Of a DNA stretch of 53,641 nt, positions 6,175 through 23,046 are shown in pieces. Source of the DNA: a virus (lineage: Duplodnaviria; Caudoviricetes); IMG/VR virus record IMGVR_UViG_3300025103_000001, positions 1 through 53,641 of that record. One strand, 5' to 3'. A program made the translations under genes and the position numbers. The notes below the pieces were generated by a model, which was not told the origin of the DNA, made no database searches, and saw only the letters and a program-made list of their open reading frames with translations. The number at the start of each line of letters is the position of its first letter. The stretch's first letter is position 1.

Positions 6175-6587
6175 TAGAACTCTTCTCCGTCTAAAAGTTC
6201 AGCACCATCTTCTGATCTATACTCGACAAGATCAAGAACCTGCACAGCTTGTAAGTCCAAGCCTGTGTAAGGTCCAAATTTATTCTCGCCTTCGTATTCA
6301 GAATACTGTACTTTAATTTTAGAACCATTACCAACCGCATAGTTTACTTCTTGTTTGTTAGCATCTAACAGACGAGGTGCAGGTCTAACCATTCCATTAG
6401 GACCATTAACTTTACGCTTGATTATTATTGATGGACCTTCTTCCATCTGTTTAAGCCTGTGTCCACGACTTGCAAATTCATTTGCAGTCTCATCATCAAC
6501 AACTAAGTTGACTGAGTAAACAGGTTCAAACCTTGTGTTAGGCTGTTTTATGCTTGCCCAATAAGCAGTTCCTTCGACAATTGCCAT
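6174..6587 (-). CDS. Single-stranded DNA-binding protein, T7 gp2.5-like
   Basis: VGNGSKIKV and LQAVQVLDLVEY motifs; acidic C-terminus ending in F (DGEEF). Start moved to MAIVEG after GGAGG. Confidence 0.85.
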   Translation of the reverse strand: MAIVEGTAYWASIKQPNTRFEPVYSVNLVVDDETANEFASRGHRLKQMEEGPSIIIKRKVNGPNGMVRPAPRLLDANKQEVNYAVGNGSKIKVQYSEYEGENKFGPYTGLDLQAVQVLDLVEYRSEDGAELLDGEEF

Positions 6588-6768
6588 AGTAATATACCTC
6601 CATAGCATTATTATTATAATTCACTACCACGCAGAACAAAGCGGAGGAAGTGAGCCAATGAACCCCATCATCTTGATATGACACCAAGTTAGGTACATAC
6701 TGAATGATGGAGAGTGAGGGCATCATACATACCTAATGGCTCTTTTACTTTGCTTTCGCAATAGAACA
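6588..6768 (-). promoter_or_regulatory. Structured 5' leader of ssb
   Basis: Several complementary pairs, a 9-bp pseudoknot and an anti-SD CCUCC (see findings). Confidence 0.6.
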
Positions 6769-6774
6769 GTAGGT

Positions 6775-6803
6775 AGTATAACATAAATGATACCCTAAGT
6801 CAA
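6775..6803 (-). promoter_or_regulatory. sigma70 promoter
   Basis: TTGACT-17 bp-TATACT with TGn extended -10. Confidence 0.85.
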
Positions 6804-6809
6804 GCAGAA

Positions 6810-7343: not shown

Positions 7344-7377
7344 AAGTTGTTGTCCTAATTTTTAAAGTCTATGTAGG

Positions 7378-7406
7378 AGTATACCACATAGTGCGCTACA
7401 TTGCAA
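7378..7406 (-). promoter_or_regulatory. sigma70 promoter
   Basis: TTGCAA-17 bp-TATACT with TGn extended -10. Confidence 0.75.
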
Positions 7407-7419
7407 ATTTATTTTCATC

Positions 7420-8781: not shown

Positions 8782-8963
8782 TTATAATCTCCCATTAAAT
8801 GATCTACTCGTTGCTGTATATAATACATACGAGCATCTGTTTGTGTTAAATTTTTATCATCAGCTTCTTTACTAGCTTGAGATACAGCTTTACTGTACCT
8901 CTCACTTTGTGTAGTAATGAAATTAATAATGTTATCTGTGTAGTTAGTTTCAATACTCATCAT
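8778..8963 (-). CDS. Hypothetical protein
   Basis: 61-aa ORF with ATGA-type overlaps. Confidence 0.6.
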   Translation of the reverse strand: MMSIETNYTDNIINFITTQSERYSKAVSQASKEADDKNLTQTDARMYYIQQRVDHLMGDYK

Positions 8964-9922
8964 GCCACCAACCTTAATGCAGGAAGCATCTTATCATTCA
9001 AAGTCTTTCTAACTCTGTCGAGTCTATCCATCTTAACAGATGCAATATTCTTTTGTGATAATCTTCTTGAAGGAATAGAATGTGTTGCCCACTCAGTCAT
9101 AGAATTATATAAAGACCACGCTGTACTTCCTAGTTCTCCACGATTACAGTTCCAGTAGTACCATAGATCACCAAGCGTTTTGTTTCTCTTAACATCAGGT
9201 TTATTCAATATAATTTCATGGTCAAATCCACTTGCTATATGACTGTCAACTGTTTTAGCTTGAGCCAAATGAGCCATAATAGACATAGCATCAGTATTAT
9301 CTATGCTAGTATCAACCATCTCTTGCCATAAATCTGTTTCATCATTATAGAATCTAACAGACTCCGATAACTTATCAGCAATTTGATTTAAGTTTAGACC
9401 TTTAGTGTGTTTAGATTTGTGGATTCCAAAGTTATTAGCAAACACCTGCATATTTAAACAGATGAATCTTTTACCACCAACCTCAACTACAAACGACCAT
9501 GAACCATCAAAACTATTTCGTGCTGATATAGTTAATGCTACTTGATCTCCAGTACCTTCACCGATACTAACTGTATGAGCAGGTAAAGTATAGATACTGT
9601 ATGCTCTAGCACCATCATGTGAACAGGCTGTTTCTCTTTCAATACCTGTGACATCTAAATCTGATAGCTTAATAACATTCTCTGCTGTTTTAAATGCGTC
9701 AACATGATTGACAGGTTTATAGCCTTTACCAACCACACTCAATACTTTATTAGTATCTTCACGCACCAATGCAACATGAGAATTTATATCAGTAAAGTCT
9801 GTATAAGCACCATCAATTGGACTTATCCCATGTCTCAGACTAAGTAATGGTTCTCTGCGTACTGAAAAATCAGCACTACCATAATCGCCTAGATTTGCTA
9901 GGACTTCTGCTCTATTATTCAT
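8960..9922 (-). CDS. DUF932-family phage/plasmid protein
   Basis: ALVREDT..VL..VG..Y, NSFDGS, RFICLN and STAWSLYNSMTEW motifs. Confidence 0.8.
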   Translation of the reverse strand: MNNRAEVLANLGDYGSADFSVRREPLLSLRHGISPIDGAYTDFTDINSHVALVREDTNKVLSVVGKGYKPVNHVDAFKTAENVIKLSDLDVTGIERETACSHDGARAYSIYTLPAHTVSIGEGTGDQVALTISARNSFDGSWSFVVEVGGKRFICLNMQVFANNFGIHKSKHTKGLNLNQIADKLSESVRFYNDETDLWQEMVDTSIDNTDAMSIMAHLAQAKTVDSHIASGFDHEIILNKPDVKRNKTLGDLWYYWNCNRGELGSTAWSLYNSMTEWATHSIPSRRLSQKNIASVKMDRLDRVRKTLNDKMLPALRLVA

Positions 9923-10110
9923 AGATCCCCCTTGTTAATTAATTTAAAATTGTCCTTGTCTTTTATAAAACAAGCAACAGTTAAGTCCGTTCCGTTTTCT
10001 TTTCTAAAAACAAACTTCTTAACTGCGGTTGGTTTGGAACTATCTTCATATAGATCCCTTGTGTCAGAAGTAATAACTTCTTTGACATAGAATAGACTTA
10101 ATCCGTCCAT
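9919..10110 (-). CDS. Hypothetical early protein
   Basis: 63-aa ORF with GAGGG Shine-Dalgarno, preceded by pseudoknot copy 1. Confidence 0.65.
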   Translation of the reverse strand: MDGLSLFYVKEVITSDTRDLYEDSSKPTAVKKFVFRKENGTDLTVACFIKDKDNFKLINKGDL

Positions 10111-10131
10111 AATTATACCCTCTCTAATGGT

Positions 10132-10165
10132 AGCAATATTATAAAGGCAATCGCTGTGAGCCTAT
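10132..10165 (-). promoter_or_regulatory. H-type pseudoknot, copy 1
   Basis: S1 AUAGGC/GCCUUU; S2 AGCGAU/AUUGCU. Confidence 0.6.
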
Positions 10166-10174
10166 AGAAACTGT

Positions 10175-10600
10175 AGTAGTTAGTGGGCAGTTGGATTAAC
10201 ATTTAAGGATAGTTCATTAACTGCTAATTTCCCTATCAATCCTCGCACTAGCTACTGGTAGTTTTGTAGTTCCGAAGATAACTACCAACTCCTCCAACAG
10301 CAACATAACCATCGGTCTTTACCCTGTCTGTCTACAGCAGTATGTGCGCTTTTATAGTCATCTAACAACCCATACATCTCATTGTTAGGAAGACTTAAGG
10401 CTTTGATTGCTACGCCATCAATGATGGTAAATACTTCTACAATCACCTTATACTAGTTTGATTTGTTTACCCACAGCTTAAATTACTAGCAAAGTCTGTG
10501 CGCTTGTAAGGAACTGTTTATAACTCGTTTAGCACCTCATGGGTAGAGTGGCAGGAATGAATTTATGTTGGCTTCCTTTTCTTACCAAACCCTTACTATT
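10175..10600 (-). ncRNA. Candidate large structured non-coding RNA
   Basis: A gap of about 490 bp in an otherwise packed region, filled with consecutive long imperfect hairpins and loop-loop complementarity. Confidence 0.55.
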
Positions 10601-10605
10601 ATTGT

Positions 10606-11058
10606 TTAGCTGTTTTCTAAATATTCAGAAGCTATATCTGTTTTGATTTGTTCAAGATTCTCTGTAGCATCTTTAGGTAGTAAAGCAAAAGCTACTTTAC
10701 TAAAGACATCTTCATAGGCTGAGTGATAACCATTAAGATTAAGCTTAATAAGAGGCATAGTTGTTCGACTATTTCTATAGCTATAAGAATTATATTGCTC
10801 TAATTGAAAAGCCTTACTGCATATTTCTCTATTAAAAGAATCTATACTATGAGAAATCTCTTTAGTAAGATCATCTAAAAGATTTTGCGCTTCATCAACT
10901 TTATCTTTCAAGATTATAGCTCGTTGAACATTAGAATCAATACTTTTATATTCTATTGTTTCATATAGAATAGCTTTCGTATCTTCTGAACCACTAATTA
11001 TTTTAGTACAAATAGCGTCAACGATTGAATCTATTTCAAATTTTCTAAGCTGTGGCAT
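10606..11058 (-). CDS. Hypothetical early protein
   Basis: 150-aa ORF with a central helical or coiled segment. Confidence 0.7.
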   Translation of the reverse strand: MPQLRKFEIDSIVDAICTKIISGSEDTKAILYETIEYKSIDSNVQRAIILKDKVDEAQNLLDDLTKEISHSIDSFNREICSKAFQLEQYNSYSYRNSRTTMPLIKLNLNGYHSAYEDVFSKVAFALLPKDATENLEQIKTDIASEYLENS

Positions 11059-11059
11059 A

Positions 11060-11410
11060 TTACACCAACCTTGCAGGAATACGAATCATCTGCATAGTAG
11101 TGTTAGTATGACTTACAGGTGTGATTTGATATTCACCTTCGACATTGGTTCTTTTATACCATATGTCTCTGAGTGGATTATCATTTCGTCTATAAGCAAC
11201 CCATTTGCCAAAGTTAAAAGCGGTGTAAGTAGTACCTTTGTTGATACTATAACCTCTGCTCTTTTTAGCATTGCGCTTGATTTGATTAAAACCAACTGTA
11301 TTTCCGATTGCCCACAATGTTCTAACAAACAATGGTGCGGAAGCGATTGGTTTAGTTAAGTCTACATCATCTTTGATGTTTCCTTTCTTTGTATAAGTAA
11401 TTCTACTCAT
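11060..11410 (-). CDS. Hypothetical basic early protein
   Basis: 116-aa ORF preceded by pseudoknot copy 2. Confidence 0.7.
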   Translation of the reverse strand: MSRITYTKKGNIKDDVDLTKPIASAPLFVRTLWAIGNTVGFNQIKRNAKKSRGYSINKGTTYTAFNFGKWVAYRRNDNPLRDIWYKRTNVEGEYQITPVSHTNTTMQMIRIPARLV

Positions 11411-11433
11411 AGTTTTTCTCTCTCTTTAATTTT

Positions 11434-11469
11434 GAACAGTATATTAAAGGCAACTGTTCTTAAGCCTAT
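11434..11469 (-). promoter_or_regulatory. H-type pseudoknot, copy 2
   Basis: S1 AUAGGC/GCCUUU; S2 GAACAGU/ACUGUUC. Confidence 0.65.
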
Positions 11470-11673
11470 CGAAATTTTAACTAGGTGCAGTACCTTTAAC
11501 TCCGCTGTATCTGCCTTGTCTGTTATAGTATTTCAACTGAAGTACCTAGTTATTTTTTGCCCACCACCAACCCGATATAAAAAAGATACATCTTAGTTTT
11601 ATATCTCTACATATTCTTTAACTTAACATTAAAGGAAAATTTAAAATAATCATGTTTTCTTTGCCGTCCCGTA

Positions 11674-11702
11674 AGTATAGCAAATCCACCGAAAAAAGTC
11701 AA
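11674..11702 (-). promoter_or_regulatory. sigma70 early promoter
   Basis: TTGACT-17 bp-TATACT with TGn. Confidence 0.85.
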
Positions 11703-11789
11703 TGGGTTTAAAACTCTATACGAACAATATATAGTAATAAACCCAACATAACTTAAATAGTATTATTAATACTTTTTGCGCAGGTCTAC

Positions 11790-12002
11790 TTACCACGATC
11801 TTATAACCCATTCTGCACCGATATATTGTGTGTATCTAACAGTTAAAACTTTAGATCGTCTACCTTTTGTATAGATAGACATTTTATCTTCTTTGATAGA
11901 GAAGGATTGTTTATACCTAAACCCTTGTTTTCTAAGGGAATTTAATGCTTGTTGATAACTATTAAACAGTTGTTCGCTGTCTTGTTCTTTAACAGATCTC
12001 AT
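11790..12002 (-). CDS. Hypothetical early protein
   Basis: 70-aa ORF with ATGA overlap. Confidence 0.6.
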   Translation of the reverse strand: MRSVKEQDSEQLFNSYQQALNSLRKQGFRYKQSFSIKEDKMSIYTKGRRSKVLTVRYTQYIGAEWVIRSW

Positions 12003-12217
12003 GATGATTCCCCATAATTAATATCACAATTTTGACAGTAAGCTGTATAGATTGTGGTAGGAGTTATAAATTCGATAAGGTCTGAATCACATTCGCTACA
12101 TGATTGCGGTGTTTCAGCACCAAAATCTAAAGAGTTATCATTCTTTGCATAGCCTTCTTCATAAGTCTTACCATTTTTTGAAATGTGTATATGTCCACCG
12201 ACAATATCTATATCCAC
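11999..12217 (-). CDS. Small Zn-ribbon protein
   Basis: CSEC...CQNC. Confidence 0.6.
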   Translation of the reverse strand: MDIDIVGGHIHISKNGKTYEEGYAKNDNSLDFGAETPQSCSECDSDLIEFITPTTIYTAYCQNCDINYGESS

Positions 12218-12426
12218 TATTTTACCTCTGCAATTAAGTCATCTTTCATAGTTATTTTAGCAAAAAATTCTCTACCACCGCCTAATAGATGTGGTATTCT
12301 TGCTCCTACAAATGAACCTGTTGATTTATATTCAGCACCAAAGACTGAAGTTTCTAAAAATTGTAAAGGTTTACCAATACATTTTTTAAGTTCTTTTTTA
12401 CTAGCGTAGCCTGTTAATAACATCAT
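12217..12426 (-). CDS. Hypothetical early protein
   Basis: GAGG Shine-Dalgarno directly below a promoter. YASKKELK...ETSVFGAEY...REFFA resembles a small family seen in phages. Confidence 0.75.
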   Translation of the reverse strand: MMLLTGYASKKELKKCIGKPLQFLETSVFGAEYKSTGSFVGARIPHLLGGGREFFAKITMKDDLIAEVK

Positions 12427-12481
12427 AATATTTCCTCGTTTGTTAAGTTTTTATGGTTCGGTTTGTTGCCGAAGCCTCACA

Positions 12482-12510
12482 AGTCTAACCGCTCGGTCAA
12501 AAAAAGTCAA
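12482..12510 (-). promoter_or_regulatory. sigma70 early promoter
   Basis: TTGACT-17 bp-TAGACT. Confidence 0.8.
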
Positions 12511-12662
12511 GGGGTTTAAAACTTAGTAAGAACAATATATACAAAAAAGATCAGTCCAACTCTAATAGATGTATATATACATTTTGCGCAACCTCTTAAA
12601 AGATTATTTAACTATGTAGGTTTGTATCTATACTTTTTACATATTCTTTTTGGTTATATACC

Positions 12663-12714
12663 TGTGGATAAACTGTTTATAAGTCTGTATAAGCTGTGAA
12701 TATACTGTGAATAT
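12663..12714. repeat. Array of five DnaA-box-like 9-mers
   Basis: TGTGGATAA (perfect), TGTTTATAA, TCTGTATAA, TGTGAATAT and TGTGAATAT, starting at 12663, 12674, 12684, 12695 and 12706. Confidence 0.65.
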
Positions 12715-12928
12715 AACTTATAGTTATATAGAGATGCCCTCAATAATACGCGCCATCTTTTGAAAATTTGAGATTCTAAATTGACAGCTCAAGTTCGAGT
12801 CTTCGAGTTTTAAATAGTCTATCAATTTCGAATCTAAATTTTTGGGGGGTTTTCAAAGCCTGCTAAATAAAATTGAAGCGCTTCTTAGCGCATAATTTGA
12901 GGGTGGTTGACGAAGAGATCTGTAGCAT

Positions 12929-12963
12929 AAGAGAAGGGGAGAATCTCAATGTCATCCCCCCTA
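12929..12963 (-). terminator. Putative intrinsic terminator
   Basis: GGGGGGAT...ATTCTCCCC followed by TTCTCTT, just after the stop at 12979. Confidence 0.5.
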
Positions 12964-12978
12964 ACTCGGTGATCCTAT

Positions 12979-13257
12979 CTAGTTCTGGTCTTGTTGAGCC
13001 ACATAGTCTTGGATCGAATTGCGATACTTAGCCGGTAAAGTCTTCTTAGAGAATAGCGTATGAGCTTGGCTGTAAGTTAGTCTGCCTTCTTTTTTCTCAT
13101 TATAGAGACAGCCTTGTATCTGTTTAGCTTCTCGGTAGTTAGTGTTGCCGTTTGTCTTGCTTGCAAATTTGAAACTCAATCCTCTGATTTGATTCCAAGT
13201 TGCCGGACCTTTACGGGTTGCTTCGGGTACTTTTTTGATGTCGAATGTTGTAGCCAT
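12979..13257 (-). CDS. Isolated basic early protein, 92 aa
   Basis: Start moved to MATTFDIKK; the upstream extension in the ORF track looks non-coding. Confidence 0.65.
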   Translation of the reverse strand: MATTFDIKKVPEATRKGPATWNQIRGLSFKFASKTNGNTNYREAKQIQGCLYNEKKEGRLTYSQAHTLFSKKTLPAKYRNSIQDYVAQQDQN

Positions 13258-13899
13258 GTGTTTTCTGCCTTTATTTGTTAAGTTTATGAGTTTGGAAGAT
13301 TTTTCCGCTCTCACCCTAAGGGGAGTGGGAAAATCTTTGGCTTTCTTCTCATAAACCTGAATAAAGGAACACATGTATAGCGACACCATATCGACATAAG
13401 TAGCCGAAGTGAGCTGTAAAGGTCCTTCTTGGCAACTTAGGAGTCTAAGCAGATTGGTTGAGTTTATATAAATTTGCAGGCAAAGCAAACGGTGAGACTA
13501 AATGCCGTTAGAAGATGCAATAGATACAAGGCTACCTAGTATATGAGGAAATAAGATGTAGACTAACGAACCTTTACAAGCTTATGCGCTATTCTCTTAG
13601 AAGTACTAAGCGGTTAAGTGTTGTGATTCGATCTGTAGTCTATTGAGCTTGACAAGTCTCGACTAGAATAGGGCATTGTGGGAGGGGGGTTATATTTATA
13701 GAGATTCTCCACTTGTCAGACGCGGAAGATCTTGTAGTCAACCACCCCATGCAGGATGCCATACCCCCCACCTACCGTATATATGTAGTGCTTGAATGTA
13801 ATTATGAAAATAAGGTGTAAACCAGTTTCCCCGAACTTAATAGACTAATAGACCACCATGACTGGTAGGCACTATCAACCTTGGGGGGGGACAAGGTTC

Positions 13900-13928
13900 A
13901 TTGTACAGTCAATAATCAATTCTGTCAA
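13900..13928 (-). promoter_or_regulatory. Leftward sigma70 promoter
   Basis: TTGACA-17 bp-TACAAT. Confidence 0.7.
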
Positions 13929-13943
13929 TAGTTAATTTATTAC

Positions 13944-13971
13944 TTGACAAAACAACAGATAGCTGTAAACT
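13944..13971 (+). promoter_or_regulatory. Rightward sigma70 promoter for the packaging/structural arm
   Basis: TTGACA-16 bp-TAAACT, ending 6 nt before the ATG at 13978. Confidence 0.7.
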
Positions 13972-13977
13972 AGATCT

Positions 13978-14403
13978 ATGACTGGTTTACTAAACTCCCT
14001 CAACAAAAAGAAAGAATTAACTCCTAAACAACAGAGTTTCTTAGATAATCTAGTAACTACTGGAGGAGATTCAAGGAAGTCTGCTGAGTTAGCAGGCTAT
14101 GCAGGCAATCATTATCAAGTCTTAAAAGCTTTAAAAGATGAAGTATTAGACCTTACAACGAATGTTCTTGCGCAAGCTGCGCCACAAGCAGCCTTTAAAC
14201 TATTAGATATAATGAATGCTGATGCGCCTATTCCGCAAGCAACAAATAAATTACAAGCAGCGCAAACAATATTAGATCGTGTAGGTATTGCCAAGACTGA
14301 AAAGTTAGACATTAACCATAAAGTAGCAGGCGGGATATTTATCATGCCAGAGAAAGAAGCAATAGTTATAGATGCAGAGGTAGTAGATGTCGAATCAGAA
14401 TAG
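13978..14403 (+). CDS. terS: Terminase small subunit (putative)
   Basis: LTPKQQSFLD...SAELAGY helix-turn-helix and AAQTILDRVG; first gene of the late arm. Confidence 0.75.
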   Translation: MTGLLNSLNKKKELTPKQQSFLDNLVTTGGDSRKSAELAGYAGNHYQVLKALKDEVLDLTTNVLAQAAPQAAFKLLDIMNADAPIPQATNKLQAAQTILDRVGIAKTEKLDINHKVAGGIFIMPEKEAIVIDAEVVDVESE

Positions 14404-14566
14404 TGAAGAGTTTCTAAGTTATTGTATGAGACTATATGATTCCAACTGCCATGAGAGAAAAGAACATGGACAAGAACCTTTTGAAACTTTTGAAGATTAC
14501 TATAATACATACACAAGGTGGTTAAAAAATAAATATGCTGAACTGGAAACATCTACAAGAAGTTGA
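14387..14566 (+). CDS. Small hypothetical protein, 59 aa (not in ORF track)
   Basis: MSNQNSEEFLSYCMRLYDSNCHERKEHGQEPF...; GAGG Shine-Dalgarno; fills the gap. Confidence 0.65.
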   Translation: MSNQNSEEFLSYCMRLYDSNCHERKEHGQEPFETFEDYYNTYTRWLKNKYAELETSTRS

Positions 14567-14786
14567 TGAGACTTACTTTGAGCATATGGCTTATGCTTTT
14601 AAAATAATCTATAAGTTTATAAGACTCATAGGTTGTATGACTACCCACGCTATCTTTCCTTTTATATTCTGTAATGCTCTAGAGCCTACAATGCGTAAAG
14701 TACAACAACAAACAAACGAAAGAAAGATAACTAAGATTGAACATTGTGATTCTTGTGGTAGAAGACCTTGTATTTGTTTTGACTGA
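14535..14786 (+). CDS. DUF6356-like small protein with Cys-rich tail
   Basis: HL..V.ETYFEH and HAIFPF motifs; tail CDSCGRRPCIC. Confidence 0.6.
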   Translation: MLNWKHLQEVDETYFEHMAYAFKIIYKFIRLIGCMTTHAIFPFIFCNALEPTMRKVQQQTNERKITKIEHCDSCGRRPCICFD

Positions 14787-14788
14787 TA

Positions 14789-14989
14789 ATGCCAACCAAA
14801 TTTAAACCTAACGAAAAGAAATATAACAGGCATACAGGTAAAGTCACAACAGCACGTTATTATATGAAAGCAATGCCCAAGAAAGAATTAATAGATTACT
14901 TAAACGGGAGCAACTCTACTTCTAAGAAAAAGCATAAAGTCTTAAAAGAACTAGAACGTAGAGGAATTAAACTGGTATGGAAACAATGA
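14789..14989 (+). CDS. Small basic hypothetical protein
   Basis: 66-aa ORF ending KVLKELERRG. Confidence 0.65.
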   Translation: MPTKFKPNEKKYNRHTGKVTTARYYMKAMPKKELIDYLNGSNSTSKKKHKVLKELERRGIKLVWKQ

Positions 14990-15138
14990 CAAAGATTTGG
15001 CGAAAAAAAGAATGGGAAAGTCTAGTCATACAACGTGATCCTACAACAAGAATCAATCAAGGTTTAATAAATTACTTAAACGAACAAGAACAAATAAATA
15101 AAAAAATAATGGCAAATAAAAATGTTAAGCGCTCCTGA
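14986..15138 (+). CDS. Small hypothetical protein, 50 aa (not in ORF track)
   Basis: MTKIWRKKEWESL...NVKRS*; ATGA overlap. Confidence 0.5.
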   Translation: MTKIWRKKEWESLVIQRDPTTRINQGLINYLNEQEQINKKIMANKNVKRS

Positions 15139-15415
15139 AGGATATATACGTAGAAAAAGTTCTACTATTCCTTTTGGTTATGAAGTAGACGAAGAAACCA
15201 AAGGATTTTTAAAACCTGTAGATATTCAAATAAAAGCTTTAGATACTATAACAGAACTGGTACATAATAAATCTATTAGTCTAGCAGAAGGAACAGAGCT
15301 TTTAGAATTTCAAACAAACAGAACCCTATCTCGTATGGGATTAAAGAAACTTGTAGATAAAAAATATGAAGAACGATTGGGAAATAAATCCAAATCTTTA
15401 CTTGACAGATCCTGA
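15122..15415 (+). CDS. Small putative DNA-binding protein (PFGY plus HTH-like)
   Basis: TIPFGY and SLAE...LSRMGLKK; overlaps the TerL start. Confidence 0.7.
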   Translation: MLSAPEGYIRRKSSTIPFGYEVDEETKGFLKPVDIQIKALDTITELVHNKSISLAEGTELLEFQTNRTLSRMGLKKLVDKKYEERLGNKSKSLLDRS

Positions 15416-17051
15416 AGGAAGCTTTATACTAAAGAAAGACGGAACTCCAAGAAAGAAAGTAGGAAGACCAAAAGGAAGCAAAAGTAATTATGCTTTTCAC
15501 AGTTCTACAAAAGCTAAACAACAAGCTACAAGATCGTTAAAGAATAAACAAAAGACGATTAAAAAATTAGAGACTAAGCTTAGTAATAAAAAAGAACACT
15601 TAAAAAGAACTGAAGAAACATTAAAGAAAGTTAGTGGATTAGATAATAGTAGTATTGTTTCAGAAAAAGATTTAACAACACTTCCTAATATTATACAGAA
15701 GCACATAGATGAAACAGGTGATTCTATTTCTTTCATGGCTAATGAAGGTCCACAAACAGATTTCTTAGCAGCAGGTGAAAAGGATGTACTCTACGGAGGT
15801 GCTGCAGGTGGTGGAAAAAGTTTTGCCATGTTAATAGATCCTTTAAGGTATTGTCATGTTAAAGAACACAGAGCTTTAATTTTAAGAAGAACAATGCCGG
15901 AACTACGAGAGCTTATTGATAAAGCTCGTGAGATTTATCCTAAAGCCTTTAAAGGTGCTAGGTTTAAAGAAGTAGAAAAAGTATGGTACTTTCCAAGTGG
16001 AGCAAAGATAGAGTTTGGATTTTTAGAAAAAGATGCAGATGTATATCGTTATCAAGGACAAGCATACAGTTGGATAGGCTTTGATGAGATTACACATTTA
16101 CCGACAGAGTTTGGTTGGAATTATTTAGCATCAAGATTAAGAACTACAAATCCTGCTATAAAAACATATTTAAGATGTACGGCTAATCCGGGTGGAGTAG
16201 GCGCACACTGGGTAAAGAAAAGATACGTAGAGCCTACTGAACCTAATAAAAGTTTTGAAGGTTCTGATGGTTTAACAAGAAAGTTTATACCTGCTAGGTT
16301 AGTGGATAATCCATACTTAGCACAAGATGGTGAATATGAGCGAATGCTTATGTCATTACCTCCCATTCAAAGAAGACAACTGTTAGAAGGGAATTGGGAA
16401 GTGAACGAAGGTGCAGCCTTTGTCGAATTTAATTCGGACCACCATATTATTCCTCCCTTTCAGATTCCGATCCATTGGGAAAGAGTAAAAGGAATTGATT
16501 ACGGATATGCAGCCGAGAGCTGTTGCCTTTGGGCAGCCGTTGATCCTCAGGACAAGACCATCATTATATATAAAGAATTATACAAAAAAGGTCTTACGGG
16601 GGAGGCTCTCGGTCAGACATTAACAGAAATGGAAATGACTGAAGCTAGATCTATTATGGGAGTATTAGATACCGCTGCGTGGGCAAGAACAGGTTATACA
16701 GGTCCTACAATAGGTGAAATGTTATTAAAGGCAGGACACAAGCTTAGACGAGCAGATAAGAATAGAGTAGCAGGTAAAGTACAAATACATGAACATTTAA
16801 AACGTAGGAATCAAACAGGCAGACCTAGATTACAAATATTTAATACTTGCGTTAATGTTATAAAAGAACTTCAAGGGATTCCTCTTTCTAAAAAGAATCC
16901 TGAGGATGTTGATACAAACGCACCCGACCATGCTTATGATGCATTAAGGTACTTAATAATGAGTAGACCAAGATTAGAAGATCCGTTTGACTCATTCTTA
17001 CGAATTAAAAGACAAGCATATAACCCTTCTGATACAGAATTTGGATATTAA
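15366..17051 (+). CDS. terL: Terminase large subunit
   Basis: Walker A GGAAGGGKS, Walker B IGFDE, TANPGG, nuclease motifs GIDYG and DHAYDALRY. Confidence 0.97.
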   Translation: MKNDWEINPNLYLTDPEGSFILKKDGTPRKKVGRPKGSKSNYAFHSSTKAKQQATRSLKNKQKTIKKLETKLSNKKEHLKRTEETLKKVSGLDNSSIVSEKDLTTLPNIIQKHIDETGDSISFMANEGPQTDFLAAGEKDVLYGGAAGGGKSFAMLIDPLRYCHVKEHRALILRRTMPELRELIDKAREIYPKAFKGARFKEVEKVWYFPSGAKIEFGFLEKDADVYRYQGQAYSWIGFDEITHLPTEFGWNYLASRLRTTNPAIKTYLRCTANPGGVGAHWVKKRYVEPTEPNKSFEGSDGLTRKFIPARLVDNPYLAQDGEYERMLMSLPPIQRRQLLEGNWEVNEGAAFVEFNSDHHIIPPFQIPIHWERVKGIDYGYAAESCCLWAAVDPQDKTIIIYKELYKKGLTGEALGQTLTEMEMTEARSIMGVLDTAAWARTGYTGPTIGEMLLKAGHKLRRADKNRVAGKVQIHEHLKRRNQTGRPRLQIFNTCVNVIKELQGIPLSKKNPEDVDTNAPDHAYDALRYLIMSRPRLEDPFDSFLRIKRQAYNPSDTEFGY

Positions 17052-17054
17052 TAA

Positions 17055-19280
17055 ATGGCAGAAAAAGAAAACAAACAAAATACTTTTTTAGATGCGGATA
17101 GCATTTATGAAGATGTTGAAAACGAACACGGTAAGACATTAAAGCTTGAATATGAGCAGTCTAAAAATCTAGTAGGTTTAATTAAATCTCGTTTTTCTTC
17201 TTGTGAAACTTCTAGGAAACCTGATGAAAGTCGTTGGTTAACATCCTATCAAAACTTTAGAGGCTTATATGGTAAAAGAGTTAGGTTTAGAGAAAGTGAA
17301 AAATCTAGAGTTTTTATAAAAGTAACTAAGACTAAAACAATTGCCGCTTATGGTCAATTAGTAGATGTCTTATTTGGCTCTGGGCAATTTCCGTTATCCG
17401 TAAAGGAAACTAAATTACCTGAAGGTATATCGAAAAATGCTCGTGTAGCAATGAACAATTCTCCTGTTAACATCGAAGCACCACAAGAAATGGGAGATGG
17501 CGAGCTAGAACAAAACGCTGTATCAAAAACTAACCTTTTCGATGTCGGTTATAAAGGCGATGGAAATGTTCTAATGCCCGGAGCAACCTTTAAAGAAGGT
17601 GAAAACTTTTTAAGTTCTTTAGAAGATAACTATACTAATGCAGAAGGAAGAGTTGTTCTTGAAGCAGGTTTATCCGCAATTCCTCAAGTTCCTGAAATTA
17701 GTCCTGCAGCCAAAGCAGCACGCAACATGGAAAAATTAATTCACGATCAATTAGAAGAATCTAATGGGGTGTCTGAATTAAGAAATGCTTTATTTGAATC
17801 AGCGATGCTTGGTACAGGAATTATAAAAGGACCATTTAGTTTTAATAAAACTTTACACCGTTGGGATAAAAACGGAGAAACAAGAGAATATAAACCTGTA
17901 CAAGTACGAGTACCACGCGTAGAGTTTGTTAGTTGTTGGGATTTTTATCCTGATCCAAATGCTACATCTATTGATGAGTGTGACTTTATTATACACAGAC
18001 ATAAGTTTAATAGAAGTCAATTAAGAGGATTAAGAAATCTTCCGTACTTTGATAAAGATGCAATTAGAAATACATTAAGTGAAGGTCCTAACTACGAAGA
18101 AAAGTATTTTGAAAATCAACTTAATGAAGATAATAACGCAGAAGATTATAATACAGACCGCTATGAAGTATTAGAATATTGGGGAATGATGGATGCAGAC
18201 TTTGCAAGAGAAGCCGGTATTGATCTTCCTGCATCAATAGATGATCTAGATGAAGTGCAGATAAATGCATGGACTTGTGGTGGTATGTTATTAAGAGCAG
18301 TTGTAAATCCTTTTACTCCTCCAACTATTCCCTATCATGCATTTCCTTATGAACGTAATCCTTATAGTTTCTTTGGTATAGGTGTACCTGAGAATATGTC
18401 AGACTCACAAACTATTATGAACGGACACGCTAGAATGGCAGTAGATAATCTAGCACTAGCAGGTTCATTAGTCTTTGATATAGATGATTCTGCTTTAGTA
18501 GGTGGACAGTCAATGGAAATATATCCCGGAAAGATATTCCGCAGACAGGCAGGAATGCCCGGACAGGCAGTACATGGAATGAAGTTCCCTAACACCGCAC
18601 CTGAAAATATGATGATGTTTGACAAGTTTAGACAACTTGCAGACGAACAAACAGGTATACCTAGCTATTCACACGGACAGACAGGTGTGCAAAGTATGAC
18701 AAGAACAGCTTCAGGTATGTCGATGTTATTAGGTGCATCCAGTTTAAATATTAAAACAGTTGTAAAAAATATAGATGATTTCTTACTTAAGCCTTTAGGC
18801 GAAGCATACTTCCATTGGAATATGCAGTTTATAGAAGAAGATATAGATACTGTTGGAGATTTAGAAATTAACGCAATGGGAACTAGTAGTTTAATGCAAA
18901 AAGAAGTAAGGAGTCAACGATTGACTATGTTCTTACAAACTGCACAGAATCCTTCTATTGCACCATTTATTAAAATATCAAAAATAATTAGCGAACTAGC
19001 TTACACTTTAGATCTTGATCCTGATGAAATACTCAACGATCCTGAAGAAGCTGCTATCGCTGCACAAATAATAGGAATGCAAAATGCTCAACAAGAACCT
19101 AGCGCGGAAGCTCAAGCCAATAACCCACAACAAGCTGCTATGGGAGGCGCTCAAGGAATACCTGAAGGACCTGCAGACGTTGGAGTTACAGGTACTGGTG
19201 GTGGCAACATCGGAACAGGAAATGTACCGCAGTCAGGGGAAGATCAATTCTCTGGCACGCTTAGAGCAGCTCAAGGATGA
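17055..19280 (+). CDS. Portal protein
   Basis: Follows TerL; LGTGIIK, FYPDP, FFGIG and TASGMSML motifs; 741 aa. Confidence 0.9.
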   Translation: MAEKENKQNTFLDADSIYEDVENEHGKTLKLEYEQSKNLVGLIKSRFSSCETSRKPDESRWLTSYQNFRGLYGKRVRFRESEKSRVFIKVTKTKTIAAYGQLVDVLFGSGQFPLSVKETKLPEGISKNARVAMNNSPVNIEAPQEMGDGELEQNAVSKTNLFDVGYKGDGNVLMPGATFKEGENFLSSLEDNYTNAEGRVVLEAGLSAIPQVPEISPAAKAARNMEKLIHDQLEESNGVSELRNALFESAMLGTGIIKGPFSFNKTLHRWDKNGETREYKPVQVRVPRVEFVSCWDFYPDPNATSIDECDFIIHRHKFNRSQLRGLRNLPYFDKDAIRNTLSEGPNYEEKYFENQLNEDNNAEDYNTDRYEVLEYWGMMDADFAREAGIDLPASIDDLDEVQINAWTCGGMLLRAVVNPFTPPTIPYHAFPYERNPYSFFGIGVPENMSDSQTIMNGHARMAVDNLALAGSLVFDIDDSALVGGQSMEIYPGKIFRRQAGMPGQAVHGMKFPNTAPENMMMFDKFRQLADEQTGIPSYSHGQTGVQSMTRTASGMSMLLGASSLNIKTVVKNIDDFLLKPLGEAYFHWNMQFIEEDIDTVGDLEINAMGTSSLMQKEVRSQRLTMFLQTAQNPSIAPFIKISKIISELAYTLDLDPDEILNDPEEAAIAAQIIGMQNAQQEPSAEAQANNPQQAAMGGAQGIPEGPADVGVTGTGGGNIGTGNVPQSGEDQFSGTLRAAQG

Positions 19281-19317
19281 AGTTGAAATTACAATAAAAG
19301 AGGGAACAGATGTTTAA
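19084..19317 (+). CDS. Small helical head-module protein overlapping the portal 3' end
   Basis: AGGA Shine-Dalgarno; MYRSQGKINSL pattern; stop overlaps the next start. Confidence 0.7.
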   Translation: MLNKNLARKLKPITHNKLLWEALKEYLKDLQTLELQVLVVATSEQEMYRSQGKINSLARLEQLKDEVEITIKEGTDV

Positions 19318-20509
19318 AAGAAAACAATATTATGATGCAGGAGCTATTTATTCTCCGGCAGAAAAGTCCGTAAGTGGAACTAACCCTGCAGTTAGTGCAG
19401 GTGGAAACTTAAGATCTGCTGTGGGTTCTTTACTAGATGCGGCTGTAAATAGTGATGCTATGCAGAATGTTGCTCAAGGTTTTATGACTGCAGCCGGTGG
19501 ACCAAGTCAATTACAACTAGATCAGTTTGGATATCAAGTAGGTGAAAATAAAAAAGCAAGAGAGGCAGGCATCGCAGAACCTTTCCCAACTTCTGCCTCA
19601 GATGTTTTAGGACACGGAGGAAAAGGACAAACAGGACCTACTGCAATGCAGCGTTGGGCAGAAAGAACTAGACAGCCTAATCAATCTGTAGCTCAGAGTT
19701 TACAAAGAATAGCAAGTGGTGTAGGCGCTCATCCGGGTTATAAAGGTTCAGGTAAAGGCGCAGGCGGTTCATTAGGACAAGAAGCAAGAGCAGCAAGGAA
19801 AGCTAAAAGAAAAGCTAAAAGAACTATCGAAAGCGGTGAAGGTGGATACGAAGGCGGAAGAGTTGAAAAAGCAATAGGCGGAGAACTAGACGCACAAATG
19901 TCAGGAATGATGGAAGAAGAAATGCCAACACACATAATGCCTGACGGAACAGAAATGCCGGGAGCAACTCATGGTGAGTATGAGCAGGGATTAGCAGAAG
20001 GACAAGCCGAAGATATGGCACAAGAAGGAATGGTTCCCGATGAACAAATGGAAGAAGATTACGTAGACTATATTGTCCAATCGTCTGAGTTAGCTTCCGA
20101 AGACATAAATTATTTAGAAGAAGCACTAGCTGCTGATGATCGTTTAAGTATGATATTCGATCAGATAGTAGAAACTGCTTCAGAATTTTCCGGATCAGGT
20201 CCTATAGATGGACCGGGTTCAGAAGTCTCTGATTCGATACCTGCAAGGTTATCGGACGGAGAGTTTGTTATAACATCTAAAGCTGCGGAGGAAATCGGTC
20301 CTGATAACCTACAAAGTATGATGGAAGAAGCTGAAGTAGCCTCAGATGCTAGACAAACAGCAGCCTATGGTGGTATGATAACTGGAGAAGAAGATAGCGC
20401 AGACGCAAGTTCTTTTATGACACAAACTGTAGATCCTACAGAGCGTGAAATGAAGAAACTTCAACTTGCCGCAAATCCTCGTAGCCAATATCGTCCCATT
20501 TATGGCTGA
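19310..20509 (+). CDS. Putative internal virion/head protein
   Basis: Lies between portal and scaffold; GPGSEVSDSIPARLSDGEFVI motif; xxGG repeats. Confidence 0.7.
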   Translation: MFKRKQYYDAGAIYSPAEKSVSGTNPAVSAGGNLRSAVGSLLDAAVNSDAMQNVAQGFMTAAGGPSQLQLDQFGYQVGENKKAREAGIAEPFPTSASDVLGHGGKGQTGPTAMQRWAERTRQPNQSVAQSLQRIASGVGAHPGYKGSGKGAGGSLGQEARAARKAKRKAKRTIESGEGGYEGGRVEKAIGGELDAQMSGMMEEEMPTHIMPDGTEMPGATHGEYEQGLAEGQAEDMAQEGMVPDEQMEEDYVDYIVQSSELASEDINYLEEALAADDRLSMIFDQIVETASEFSGSGPIDGPGSEVSDSIPARLSDGEFVITSKAAEEIGPDNLQSMMEEAEVASDARQTAAYGGMITGEEDSADASSFMTQTVDPTEREMKKLQLAANPRSQYRPIYG

Positions 20510-20513
20510 TAAC

Positions 20514-20645
20514 CGGTAGAGTTACTTACTTATTGTAACCCTCTATCAAACTATAACCTTTAGCTACTTTGCAAGTCAAACCCTTATTCAAAAGACGTTT
20601 TTGTAATAAGCCACTTTGAAGATAGCGCAAACCCTAAAAGGAGAA
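20514..20645 (+). promoter_or_regulatory. Structured leader of the scaffold gene
   Basis: Two hairpins. The long one has two CYAC/CC internal loops and covers part of the Shine-Dalgarno. Confidence 0.6.
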
Positions 20646-20649
20646 AACG

Positions 20650-21513
20650 ATGGCAGAAGTTGAAAACATACAGGAAACTGTAGAAGAACCGAAACCTAAT
20701 CCGTACAACCAAAAGAAATCTTGGCAAACGGATGATGTAATGCCTAAAGAAGGTAAAACTGCTACCAGTTTATTTGTCGCACCTCAAACTGAGACAGTTG
20801 TTTCAGAAGAAGAGAAGCCGCAAGAAACTGTACATACAGACAAACCTTATCAGAAGGCTGATTATAAAAAAAGATACGATGACCTAAAAAGGCATTATGA
20901 TACAAAATTAAATGAGTTCAGAACTAGAGAACAAGAGTTAGCAGGTAAAGTGCAACAAGCGCAACCCGTGTACGAAGCTCCTAAATCACTAGAAGAATTA
21001 GAACACTTTAAAAATCAATATCCTGATGTTTATGAAGTTGTCGAAAGTGTTGCTCACTTACAGAGTGAAGATAAAATGAAAAGCATAACCGATAAGGTTG
21101 CAATCATTGAAGCTCGTGAACAAGAAGTTATGAGGCGTGAAGCTGAAAAAGACTTGATGGATAAACATCCTGACTATTCAGACTTACGTAATAATGATGA
21201 CTTCCATGTTTGGGCAGAAACTCAACCTGAAGAGATACAAGATTGGATTTATAATAATCCTAACAATGCATCTCTAGCGAGTAAGGCTATTGATCTTTAT
21301 AAAATGGAATCAAGTTCTTTAAAACAACAAAAGCCGAGTCCACGTAATCAGGCAAAAGCGTCTGAAATGGTGTCTACTAAAACGACATCTGTTGAAGCGA
21401 AAGAGCCTAAAATCTGGACTCAAGAAGAAATCTCTGATTTATCTATGGATGAGTTTGATAAATATGAAAAAGATATTGATCAAGCAATTCTTGAAGGTAG
21501 AGTAAGAGGATAA
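20650..21513 (+). CDS. Capsid scaffolding protein
   Basis: Acidic coiled coil, YKKRYDDLKRHYD, C-terminal AILEGRV; directly before the capsid gene. Confidence 0.85.
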   Translation: MAEVENIQETVEEPKPNPYNQKKSWQTDDVMPKEGKTATSLFVAPQTETVVSEEEKPQETVHTDKPYQKADYKKRYDDLKRHYDTKLNEFRTREQELAGKVQQAQPVYEAPKSLEELEHFKNQYPDVYEVVESVAHLQSEDKMKSITDKVAIIEAREQEVMRREAEKDLMDKHPDYSDLRNNDDFHVWAETQPEEIQDWIYNNPNNASLASKAIDLYKMESSSLKQQKPSPRNQAKASEMVSTKTTSVEAKEPKIWTQEEISDLSMDEFDKYEKDIDQAILEGRVRG

Positions 21514-21542
21514 TATTAACCCTTTAATACAAGGAAACTAAA

Positions 21543-22532
21543 ATGGCTTATAATCAATCTGATGCTTTATTCGAGCAATCAACTGATACTAATGGCAACT
21601 TTGGTAACTCCGTATCAGGGCAGAATAATAGCTTCTTCATGCCGAAGGTTTATTCCAAGAAGGTACTTAACTTTTTTAGAAAATCTTCAGTAGTTGAAGC
21701 AATTACAAACACCGATTATACCGGTGAAATCTCTGCCTTCGGAGATACCGTCCGTATTATTAAAGAACCCACGATTACTGTTTATCAGTATGAAAGAGGC
21801 GCTGACGTAACGCAAAGTAAATTAACAGACCAAGAGCTTACTCTTACTGTTGATATAGCTAACGCATTTAAATTCATCGTTGACGATATTGAGAAATCAA
21901 TGTCTCATGTGAACTTTAAAGAAGTAGCTAGTTCGTCTGCTGCTTATGCATTGAAAGATGCATTTGATGCAGGTGTGATTGCAGAAATGTTTGCAGGCGC
22001 TTCTACATCTTCCCCTGACCATGTTATCGGTTCTGACAGCGCAACTGCTGACACAACTATGACTCATGCAACCAACTCTGTTGATTTGCTTGGTTCAGAC
22101 GGAACAGGTGTAGACGCTTTAGACCTTATGGCTAGAATGGCAAGATTGCTAGACGACCAAGACATCCCCGAAGATGGTCGTTGGTTTGTAGCACCTCCTT
22201 CGTTTTACGAAGAGTTGTCAGGATCTAGTTCTAAACTACTTTCAGTAGATTACAACGCAGGTCAAGGTTCTTTAAGAAATGGTTTGGTGTCAAGCGGAAA
22301 GCTTCGTGGTTTTGATATGTACAAGTCTAATAACATTGCAGCAGTTTCTAACTGCACAGGCAAAGTTTTAGCAGGACACATTAGTTCTACGGCTACTGCT
22401 CAAGCTATAACATCAACAGAGGTCATCCGTGATCCTGATTCATTTGGTGATATAGTAAGAGGTCTTCATGTTTATGGTGCTAACGTACTACAAGATGAAG
22501 CTTTAGTATCTGCTTTCTATCTAGTTGACTAA
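21543..22532 (+). CDS. Major capsid protein (HK97 fold)
   Basis: VYSKKVL, NTDYTGEI...GDTVRI and FGDIVRGLHVYG motifs; position and size. Confidence 0.92.
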   Translation: MAYNQSDALFEQSTDTNGNFGNSVSGQNNSFFMPKVYSKKVLNFFRKSSVVEAITNTDYTGEISAFGDTVRIIKEPTITVYQYERGADVTQSKLTDQELTLTVDIANAFKFIVDDIEKSMSHVNFKEVASSSAAYALKDAFDAGVIAEMFAGASTSSPDHVIGSDSATADTTMTHATNSVDLLGSDGTGVDALDLMARMARLLDDQDIPEDGRWFVAPPSFYEELSGSSSKLLSVDYNAGQGSLRNGLVSSGKLRGFDMYKSNNIAAVSNCTGKVLAGHISSTATAQAITSTEVIRDPDSFGDIVRGLHVYGANVLQDEALVSAFYLVD

Positions 22533-22556
22533 TCGTTAATTAAGAAGCAAAAAATG

Positions 22557-22597
22557 GTATGTGGGAAGAGAATTTTATGTTCATCTTCCCCATACTT
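22557..22597 (+). terminator. Hairpin after the capsid gene (terminator or stabiliser)
   Basis: GTATG.GGGAAGA...TCTTCCC.CATAC with only a short U tract. Confidence 0.55.
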
Positions 22598-22614
22598 AAA
22601 TAACAGGAAAAGAT

Positions 22615-22773
22615 ATGCCACAATTAGGAAATGAACGAAATCCTTTGATTATGAAAAATCCAAAAAAGGGGAACAGAAAATTAGTTCGAGCAGGAAGTAA
22701 AGCAACTGCTGAAGAACGACAAAGATATAAAGATAATTGGGAAGTTATCTTCGGAAAGTCTAAAAAAGGTTAA
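22615..22773 (+). CDS. Small basic protein, 52 aa (not in ORF track)
   Basis: AGGA Shine-Dalgarno; MPQLGNERNP...YKDNWEVIFGKSKKG*. Confidence 0.65.
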   Translation: MPQLGNERNPLIMKNPKKGNRKLVRAGSKATAEERQRYKDNWEVIFGKSKKG

Positions 22774-22803
22774 AAATAACTGCCTTTATAAAAAATAGTT
22801 ATT
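22765..22803 (+). promoter_or_regulatory. H-type pseudoknot, copy 3
   Basis: S1 AAAGGU/GCCUUU; S2 AAUAACU/AGUUAUU. Confidence 0.55.
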
Positions 22804-22827: not shown

Positions 22828-23046
22828 GTGAAAATTAAAATGCTATCTTTAATTGCTTTTTTATTAACATTTACTGGTTGTTCTGTTGTTGAAGAAACAA
22901 TAGACGCAGGTAAAAATATCTCGTCTGCTATTGTAGATGAAAGTATTGAGTTAGGTCAAACTGCAATTTCTATACCTGTACAAGCAGTAGGTACAGTTGT
23001 TGATAAATTAGAAGAAGAAACAATAGACGAAGAAACACAAGAGTAA
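22828..23046 (+). CDS. Lipoprotein (paralog of 50506-50889)
   Basis: Signal peptide ending FTG-C; amphipathic mature part with 11-residue periodicity. Confidence 0.75.
   Translation: MKIKMLSLIAFLLTFTGCSVVEETIDAGKNISSAIVDESIELGQTAISIPVQAVGTVVDKLEEETIDEETQE

Follow-up and report, generated by a model that had tools for sequence, protein, structure and literature searches.

A small hairpin element with pseudoknot potential, repeated before three genes of a pelagiphage-type genome

In the phages T4, T2 and RB69, the leader of gene 32 holds an H-type pseudoknot; 3' of it, an A+U-rich, unstructured stretch containing UUAA(A)-like repeats leads into the ribosome-binding site of this early/middle gene (accessible part of PMC3014915). 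The T4-type cassettes named PeSL and PmSL are short intergenic pieces that join a -10-like box, an overlapping stem-loop with G·T pairs, a Shine-Dalgarno (SD) sequence and a start codon (accessible parts of PMC2839356 and PMC4122927), and the preQ1-I/II, SAM-II and SAM-V riboswitches place a pseudoknot of about 35-40 nucleotides (nt), with an A/U-rich third loop, in the 5' leader by the ribosome-binding site. Here we describe an element that resembles each of these in part and that occurs exactly three times in the window, by which we mean the whole 53,641-nt stretch of viral DNA that was analysed (IMG/VR record IMGVR_UViG_3300025103_000001). Its 35-40 bases follow the order AGGY-N2-4-[6-7 nt]-(U)GCCU-loop-[complement], so that a hairpin (stem 2) carries in its loop a GCCU segment complementary to the AGGY upstream of it (stem 1). 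The element is real, conserved, portable and located in cis to the genes that it precedes. To the reading that we favour we give roughly even chances: the element would be a structure of the leader RNA, a hairpin or a pseudoknot, next to an A/U-rich ribosome-binding site on its 3' side, and would act on translation or mRNA stability, probably via a trans-acting factor.

The likeness to the gene 32 leader is one of architecture; no relationship of sequence was seen, and none was tested for. As in that arrangement, the element is followed by an A/U-rich linker (AAAUUAAAG or AAAUUAAAUAGAGGG) ending in the SD sequence, but it ends 16-24 nt before the start codon, while the T4 pseudoknot lies about 67 nt upstream of it, and it differs in being present one to three times per genome. 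Gene 32 encodes the single-stranded DNA-binding (SSB) protein that binds its operator, whereas the genes behind our element encode a 116-amino-acid (aa) protein without family, a 63-aa open reading frame (ORF) with a DUF932 protein, and a lipoprotein; the Gp2.5-like SSB gene of the window (6174-6608) has no copy upstream. With the PeSL and PmSL cassettes the element shares the composition given above, and the ORFan insertion and replacement described for them matches the insertion of copy 3 (accessible parts of PMC2839356 and PMC4122927). In contrast to them, it has no recognised -35 or UP element, neither a -35 and -10 about 17 bp apart nor a Mot box with a -10, its stem is not made of a G-run and a C-run, it has no U tail, and it is found in one to three copies per genome instead of dozens; the second, interleaved complementarity (AGGY/GCCU) is a feature that PeSLs are not described as having in those parts of the two papers. 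From the riboswitches, which it resembles in size, topology, third loop and position, it is set apart by the lack of an Rfam match, by the unrelated gene context and by an SD sequence that lies outside the fold.

The window is a podovirus-like phage genome of 53.6 kb, whole or nearly so, with a G+C content of about 35 %. Its leftward arm holds the replication/early genes (DNA polymerase, primase-helicase, Gp2.5-like SSB, DUF932, ribonucleotide reductase) and its rightward arm the structural genes (terminase, portal, capsid, tail, very large virion proteins). The three copies are all intergenic and on the same strand as the gene that follows (S1a and S1b, 5' and 3' arms of stem 1; S2a and S2b, those of stem 2; bit scores from the covariance model):

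10132-10163, minus strand: core of copy 1, 50.8 bits
10163-10160 and 10148-10145, minus strand: stem 1 of copy 1, S1a AGGC and S1b GCCU
10155-10150 and 10137-10132, minus strand: stem 2 of copy 1, S2a AGCGAU and S2b AUUGCU; loop 1 UCAC, loop 2 U, loop 3 UUAUAAU
3' of copy 1, minus strand: A/U-rich linker, SD sequence AGAGAGGG (about 10125-10118), ATG at 10110 of the 63-aa ORF, then the DUF932 gene
8960-9922: DUF932 gene (Pfam DUF932), after the 63-aa ORF
11434-11467, minus strand: core of copy 2, 57.9 bits
11467-11464 and 11451-11448, minus strand: stem 1 of copy 2, S1a AGGC and S1b GCCU
11459-11453 and 11440-11434, minus strand: stem 2 of copy 2, S2a GAACAGU and S2b ACUGUUC; loop 1 UUAA, loop 2 U, loop 3 UUAAUAU
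3' of copy 2, minus strand: SD-like GAGAGAG, then ATG at 11410 of the 116-aa gene (MSRITYTKKG family)
22767-22803, plus strand: core of copy 3, 41.3 bits
22767-22770 and 22782-22785, plus strand: stem 1 of copy 3, S1a AGGU (extendable to AAAGGU, 22765-22770) and S1b GCCU
22775-22781 and 22797-22803, plus strand: stem 2 of copy 3, S2a AAUAACU and S2b AGUUAUU; loop 1 UAAA, loop 3 at 22786-22796
3' of copy 3, plus strand: SD sequence GAGGA, then GTG start at 22828
22828-23046, plus strand: predicted lipoprotein gene, 72 aa, signal peptide with an ...LTFTGC lipobox, read by eye

A sequence-only reading had given the sequences and coordinates of the three copies correctly, as well as the 21, 23 and 24 nt that separate the end of stem 2 from the start codon (copies 1, 2 and 3). 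Its description of the parts has to be adjusted. Loop 1 has 4 nt in the three window copies, as it said, but 2-4 nt in relatives; in copy 3 this loop contains the stop codon (22771-22773) of a small upstream ORF. The kept part of stem 1 is the 4-bp AGGY/GCCU, common to all copies, whereas in copies 1 and 2 the 6-bp version that it had drawn contains a U·U mismatch. Stem 2 does pair over 6-7 bp in every copy, with one G·U pair in copy 1, but the helices do not differ completely: they are related variants (GARYART-like) that differ by compensated positions.

Chance does not account for the three sites. The pattern AGGY-N9-14-GCCTTT occurs three times in the 107 kb of two-strand sequence, never outside the copies, against a mean of 1.03 occurrences in 300 dinucleotide-preserving shuffles; when an interleaved helix of at least 6 bp is required as well, the shuffles give a mean of 0.05 and a maximum of 1, and none of the 300 holds two or more such sites. 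Run over the window with filters off, the covariance model scores the three sites at 57.9, 50.8 and 41.3 bits and its next best site at 11.6 bits (E about 4). The element also matches no Rfam family, and the earlier reading had not recognised it as a described motif. No Rfam model matches the window at gathering scores, and a search at E up to 5 over 9800-14100 returns nothing at the sites, its matches being chance-level snoRNA and intron ones (E >= 2.7), while the 17 IMG/VR census loci give a single sub-threshold mir-250 match (24.9 bits against a gathering score of 58). We found no description of the motif in the literature on HTVC103P or on pelagiphage promoters, supplements aside.

The evidence for stem 2 comes from its variation. 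We parsed 40 candidate instances and kept 36, dropping L029 and L248, which are without conserved context and within coding-like sequence, and two reverse-strand readings of copy 1 (in the window and in L002). The 36 variants show 13 distinct helices, or 14 with the relative L336, among them GAACAGU/ACUGUUC, GAGCAGU/ACUGCUC, GAGUAAUU/AAUUACUC, GAGCAAU/AUUGCUC, CAGCAGUA/UAUUGCUG, AGCGAU/AUCGCU and AAUAACU/AGUUAUU. Two-sided, compensatory changes occur in five of the six scored pairs, pairing is kept in 94.8 % of cells in alignment A4 and in 96.9 % in alignment A6 (27 distinct rows, fitted to the covariance model and hence leaning towards it), and the observed covariation score is reached by none of 500 shuffles, in line with the covariation first claimed from the window alone. 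Sliding the 3' partner by 1-3 columns lowers the pairing of the whole structure, both stems included, from 96.5-97.9 % to 34-61 %. One G·U pair is present in each of seven of the 13 helices, other mismatches in none; a G·U on the sense strand is a C·A on the antisense, and the helix is therefore selected on the mRNA-sense strand. Judging from this pattern of substitution, stem 2 is a real, selected helix.

For the second complementarity the case is one of geometry and of two invariant 4-mers that can pair. The order S1a-S2a-S1b-S2b, with both complementarities, is found in 36/36 variants, all window copies included, although the loops vary (loop 1, 2-4 nt; loop 2, 0-1 nt; loop 3, 4-11 nt), as would be expected for a pseudoknot and unlike promoter boxes at fixed spacing. 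By general pseudoknot geometry the spans suffice for an H-type fold, loop 1 crossing the 6-8 bp of stem 2 and loop 3 the 4-6 bp of stem 1, and in a rough energy estimate of the Dirks-Pierce type the pseudoknot comes out lower than either hairpin alone in every one of the 36 variants (means of -10.0 versus -6.1 and -4.0 kcal/mol). The sole variation in stem 1 is C/U opposite G, where U·G keeps the pairing, and AGGC and AGGU forms both occur; some lineages have 5-6 complementary bp, the possible fifth pair being A-U or C-G. The fourth pair (Y-G) was read from our own parse of the variants, the MAFFT alignments A3 and A4 misplacing the loop-1 gap. The H-type pseudoknot that had been proposed is in this way sterically compatible with all variants, and its formation is plausible.

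Relatives were reached through homologues of the DUF932 protein, the 116-aa protein and the tail protein. Forty-two metagenomic loci encode a homologue of the 116-aa protein (43-96 % identity), three of them cut off, and in all 39 uncut ones the element stands 16-24 nt before the start codon; the conservation in relatives that the earlier reading called for is there. In the relative L315 it precedes a different gene, of 121 aa. A second copy, before the DUF932 gene or the 63-aa ORF, is restricted to some lineages (the window, L002, L004, L005, L006, L234), and other relatives have at the DUF932 position a conserved noncoding sequence without the element. Five partial genomes of relatives hold one true copy each; the isolates HTVC103P, 104P and 115P and two near-complete contigs hold none. 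A stricter pattern scan of IMG/VR returned 39 stretches, namely 17 of pelagiphage type, 20 of a second family described below and two by chance, while a looser and unspecific one returned at least 121, with L159, L189 and L190 as true members among the matches listed. Among 41 stretches of a genome collection there was no pelagiphage-type copy.

Copy 3 shows how the element moves. In L008, whose tail protein is 99 % identical, a small conserved ORF is joined directly to the tail gene; copy 3 and the 72-aa lipoprotein gene are therefore an insertion, and the element, having come with the inserted gene, is portable, as the sequence-only reading had proposed. Copy 3 is absent from 79 of 80 tail-region loci. 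L007 and L335, identical or 99 % identical to the window, share the insertion, and beyond these L336 has both insertion and element, with a stem 2 (AGUAACU/AGUUACU versus AAUAACU/AGUUAUU in the window) that differs by a compensatory change from A-U to G-C; L337, with a more distant homologue of the lipoprotein, is without the element. An element travelling with a moron gene shows the joint movement of regulatory cassettes and ORFans. The idea of a small regulon across both genome arms is weakened by the lineage-specific nature of copy 3, which arrived with a moron gene, and by the many relatives with a single copy.

The upstream sequences bear on whether the element is transcribed. The features in question are these:

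11674-11702, minus strand: sigma-70-like promoter TTGACT-17-TATACT, about 200 nt upstream of copy 2
11478-11553, minus strand: conserved structured leader domain of about 72 nt (CUAGGUACUUCAG...CUGCACCUAG), between that promoter and copy 2
10176-10252, minus strand: hairpin domain directly upstream of copy 1, with AGTAGCTAGTG/CACTAACTACT as its closing stem (11 bp, one mismatch); 3' of it come ACAGTTTC and the element
10599-10502, minus strand: module A of the gap upstream of copy 1
10503-10453, minus strand: module B
10400-10256, minus strand: module C, overlapping a mechanical ORF at 10282-10446
10248-10183, minus strand: module D, 92-94 % identical in L004/L005

If the promoter at 11674-11702 is used, copy 2 would be transcribed within a leader of roughly 250 nt, and the promoter together with the conserved structured domain makes it probable that copy 2 is transcribed as a leader. 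The consensus fold of the 11478-11553 domain has 17 predicted pairs, four of them with changes on both sides. The 495-nt noncoding gap upstream of copy 1 (10111-10605, minus strand) is a mosaic of modules, none of which matches Rfam. Each module is shared at 92-100 % identity with different relatives, and the DUF932 proteins of these relatives reach only 55-72 % identity to that of the window; the modules could be new noncoding RNAs or mobile RNA modules. In relatives the domains equivalent to 10176-10252 are closed by GTGTGGCTAA/TTAGCCACAC. These features support the view that the region around copies 1 and 2 is transcribed as long structured leaders; a search for RNA sequencing runs over 9800-19799 listed none. 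Leader modules more conserved than the neighbouring proteins suggest an unusually RNA-rich regulatory layer in the early region.

A leader-RNA element of the kind we favour would work as follows. The 6-8 bp hairpin of stem 2 would present the invariant loop segment (U)GCCU(U), and the invariant AGGY, 2-4 nt 5' of the hairpin, would pair with it to give a compact H-type pseudoknot, ending 6-12 nt before the unstructured A/U-rich SD region and 16-24 nt before the start codon. Most likely, a structure so near the SD sequence would determine how often translation of the downstream cistron is initiated, how stable that cistron is, or both. Compensated changes accumulate in stem 2, but stem 1 and the U-A pair that closes the loop stay constant, which suggests that these constant nucleotides are read sequence-specifically; the reader may be a trans-acting protein, the 116-aa basic protein encoded just downstream being a candidate autoregulator, or the constancy may reflect loop-helix triples inside the pseudoknot. 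This protein has no family in Pfam, PHROGs or NCBIfam and no usable match in the ESM Atlas, and AlphaFold2 with a 27-sequence alignment gave a mean predicted local distance difference test score of 44.7, hence no usable model. That stem 1 forms, that the element acts at the RNA level, that it affects translation or stability and which factor reads it, we infer from sequence.

Several observations weigh against this reading. The three scored pairs of stem 1 never vary, AGG and CCU being constant; without covariation there, the pseudoknot is unproven and rests on two complementary invariant 4-mers together with the geometry. Beyond that complementarity, the constancy of stem 1 speaks neither for pairing nor against it. 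Minimum-free-energy folds of the leaders are no more stable than those of shuffles (z = 0.37 and 0.97), and stem 2 of copy 3 is weak, at -1.4 kcal/mol as a plain hairpin. No RNA-binding protein was identified. The DUF932 gene occurs in relatives without the element, which is therefore dispensable for it. A further one is a -10-like hexamer in the loop, next to the 3' arm; in the window its three instances stand 27-35 nt ahead of the start codon, a distance like that in short-leader phage promoters.

The main rival, and a serious one, is an element that works as DNA; it draws on this hexamer, TAnnAT, and on the known T4-type promoter/stem-loop cassettes, neither of which the sequence-only reading had considered. 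We hold it possible, though on the unlikely side, that the element is a promoter and stem-loop cassette of the PeSL/PmSL kind, in which the loop hexamer would be the -10 box, the AGGCT centred near -30 a box for a phage-directed middle-mode factor, and the stem-loop overlapping the -10 an attenuator of upstream transcription, in a cassette that has SD and start at its end and moves ORFans about by recombination. In 34/36 variants the loop has a hexamer whose second letter is A and whose sixth is T (TATAAT in copy 1; TAATAT, TATGAT, TAAGAT and so on), abutting the 3' arm or 1-2 nt before it; copy 1 of L234 (TAACTA) is an exception, and the L004/L005/L006 type fits only after a shift of 1-2 nt. 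PeSLs are described as sigma-70-like promoters with a stem-loop, associated with ORFan indels, and PmSLs that combine a Mot box with a TATTAT -10 have been reported (accessible parts of PMC2839356 and PMC4122927, respectively). Copy 3 is likewise an ORFan insertion, set inside the late operon, where a gene would benefit from its own promoter, and the L315 element fronts yet another gene. Against all this, there is no -35 hexamer: where one would stand with a spacer of 16-17 nt, ATAGGC or AAAGGC is found, to be compared with the TTGACT of the phage's own promoters, and the spacing floats (12-20 nt from AGGY to the hexamer, 0-6 nt from GCCU). A consensus promoter scan finds no promoter-like site on the gene strand at copies 1 and 2 and a weak 9-of-12 site (TTTATA-17-TAAAAT) overlapping copy 3. 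The hairpin is followed by an A-rich, not a U-rich, tract without a U tail and is therefore not an intrinsic terminator, and a terminator scan finds no such site at the three copies. With one to three copies per genome, and none before the structural operon or in the other right-arm gaps of the window, the element is also sparse for a promoter cassette, and a sigma-70-like promoter already lies about 200 nt 5' of copy 2, the interval containing conserved RNA-like structure.

Two other explanations keep the element in RNA. That only the hairpin forms, AGGCU and the loop UUGCCUU being separate single-stranded boxes for a protein and their complementarity incidental, seems to us decidedly unlikely; analogues would be the lambdoid nut boxA and boxB and the hairpin operators of T4 gp43 and of RNA-phage coat proteins, with control of antitermination, processing or translation. 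A stem 2 that covaries beside a stem 1 invariant over 100 % to 43 % protein identity is what protein-read nucleotides would give, and a conserved linear box a few nt 5' of a conserved-loop hairpin, downstream of an early-type promoter, fits as well. But two conserved 4-mers that are exact reverse complements would be a 1 in 256 coincidence, the C/U variation keeps the pairing, the complementarity reaches 5-6 bp in some lineages with a fifth pair of either A-U or C-G, and copy 3 comes after the terminator-like hairpin of the capsid gene, not before it, which makes little sense for a nut-type site. A ligand-sensing pseudoknot of the preQ1-I, SAM-II or SAM-V architectural class, gating the adjacent ribosome-binding site, is in our estimate very improbable. 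It would account for the compact H-type geometry, the invariant nucleotides in stem 1 and the junctions and the A/U-rich loop 3, and SAM-V is found in SAR11, the likely host clade. However, Rfam offers no match, not even in the search of 9800-14100 at E up to 5, the downstream genes are mutually unrelated and non-metabolic, the SD sequence lies outside the fold, the complementarity of loop and SD is no better than at other genes of the phage (7th, 24th and 39th of 53), and a helix between flank and SD is unsupported (684/5000 permutations as good); we found no evidence for the ligand sensor that had been suggested among the possible functions.

Other candidate arrangements were tried and rejected. 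As an anti-SD mimic, the loop GCCUUU would pair with the SD sequence; the loop-leader duplexes range from -2.6 to -9.5 kcal/mol, at the ranks just given, and show no special co-evolution. A helix closing the element would pair the UUUC flank on its 5' side with the SD sequence or the spacer; cognate pairs average -3.61 versus -3.34 kcal/mol for non-cognate ones, and such pairing looks good in some lineages (AAUUUC/GAAAUU, AGUUUC/GAAACU). Sigma-54, sigma-32 and CtrA-box readings, compared by eye with consensus sequences, have wrong spacing or lack the boxes.

The second family found in the stricter scan comprises 20 stretches (L292-L294, L299-L301, L308, L310, L312-L314, L317-L321, L323-L325, L329) in unrelated phage contigs, which share a nearly identical 33-nt core with the pelagiphage element: AGGCU-AU-GAGCAGU-U-GCCUU-GUAAAU-ACUGCUC(A), as compared with AGGCU-AAA-GAGCAGU-U-GCCUU-UAUAAU-ACUGCUC in relatives of the window. 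In these contigs the core makes up the 5' arm of a hairpin about 95 nt long, with a 19-bp main stem and an outer stem that covaries; covariation is seen in the long stem of this family. The window copies, in contrast, have no distal long-range partner for the 5' arm within 400 nt. It occurs once per record in the five whole records searched (5/5, 40-208 kb), between small genes without SD sequences, and in one member (L319) the long stem is kept by compensation while the local stem 2 is broken. Similar copies lie in four contigs of metagenome-assembled genomes in the genome collection (L344, L353, L361, L370), two from Bacteroidota, one from Peribacteria and one from Methanolobus. No Rfam family matches this second family, and its long-hairpin element is, as far as seen, undescribed. 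A bolder view, which we put forward tentatively and think improbable, would unite both families as a new class of portable pseudoknot operator, in which the AGGY/GCCU helix and the U-A pair dock a small phage protein, the 116-aa protein being the first candidate, for autoregulation of its own gene and co-regulation of any cistron that the cassette comes to precede, with the core exchanged between phages of different host phyla and embedded in a long switchable hairpin.

The window phage is related to the HTVC103P-type pelagiphages, marine phages of SAR11 type, and the DNA of its capsid region is 64-66 % identical to that of the Pelagibacter phages HTVC103P, 104P and 115P; its early region (9800-12000) has no match among deposited phages, and in the ORFs scanned neither PHROGs nor Pfam recognised an RNA polymerase of phage type. 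Pelagiphages of the HTVC103P type, together with their relatives, reportedly belong to the most abundant viral groups of ocean viromes, and the promoter and transcription passages of the same preprint are silent on gene-expression control in these phages (bioRxiv 10.1101/2019.12.14.876532). A covariation-supported element beside ribosome-binding sites offers a testable handle on post-transcriptional or middle-mode control in SAR11 phages.

Several further features were seen along the early arm. Near-consensus sigma-70-like promoters (TTGACT/TTGACA-17-TATACT/TACAAT) recur at intervals on its minus strand:

6727-6809, minus strand: early-arm promoters
7344-7419, minus strand: early-arm promoters
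11674-11702, minus strand: early-arm promoter, listed above for copy 2
12482-12510, minus strand: early-arm promoter
13900-13928, minus strand: early-arm promoter

One module, TATATTGTTC...GTTTTAAACCC, is repeated upstream of those near 11702 and near 12510. Many relatives likewise have the 11478-11553 domain upstream of the element, and L315 has it before the different gene. At 11574-11605 (minus strand) lies a hairpin, GAUAUAAAA...UUUUAUAUC, followed by GGG-N-GGUGGGCAAA; its counterparts in relatives stand 13-30 nt upstream of the element, with a compensated stem (GAUAGA/UCUAUC versus GAUAUA/UAUAUC). A different conserved hairpin, GUAAGGGU-N13-ACCCUUAC, not seen in the window, lies upstream of an SD sequence and start in L004 (7316-7403), L006 (4687-4774) and L221 (3129-3216).

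On the rightward arm, the terminator-like hairpin after the capsid gene (22556-22596, plus strand) has a stem that covaries across relatives (GGGAAGAG... versus GGGAGGAUA...). A conserved basic ORF of 52 aa (22615-22773, plus strand) lies 3' of it, and the space from this ORF to the tail gene is, in relatives, an insertion hot spot occupied by varied small genes. Farther along, a virion-type protein of 2397 aa (37490-44683, plus strand) gives a weak, sub-threshold match to the ART-PolyVal ADP-ribosyltransferase domain over residues 1521-1571 (E = 2e-6, 29.1 bits against a cut-off of 31.2).

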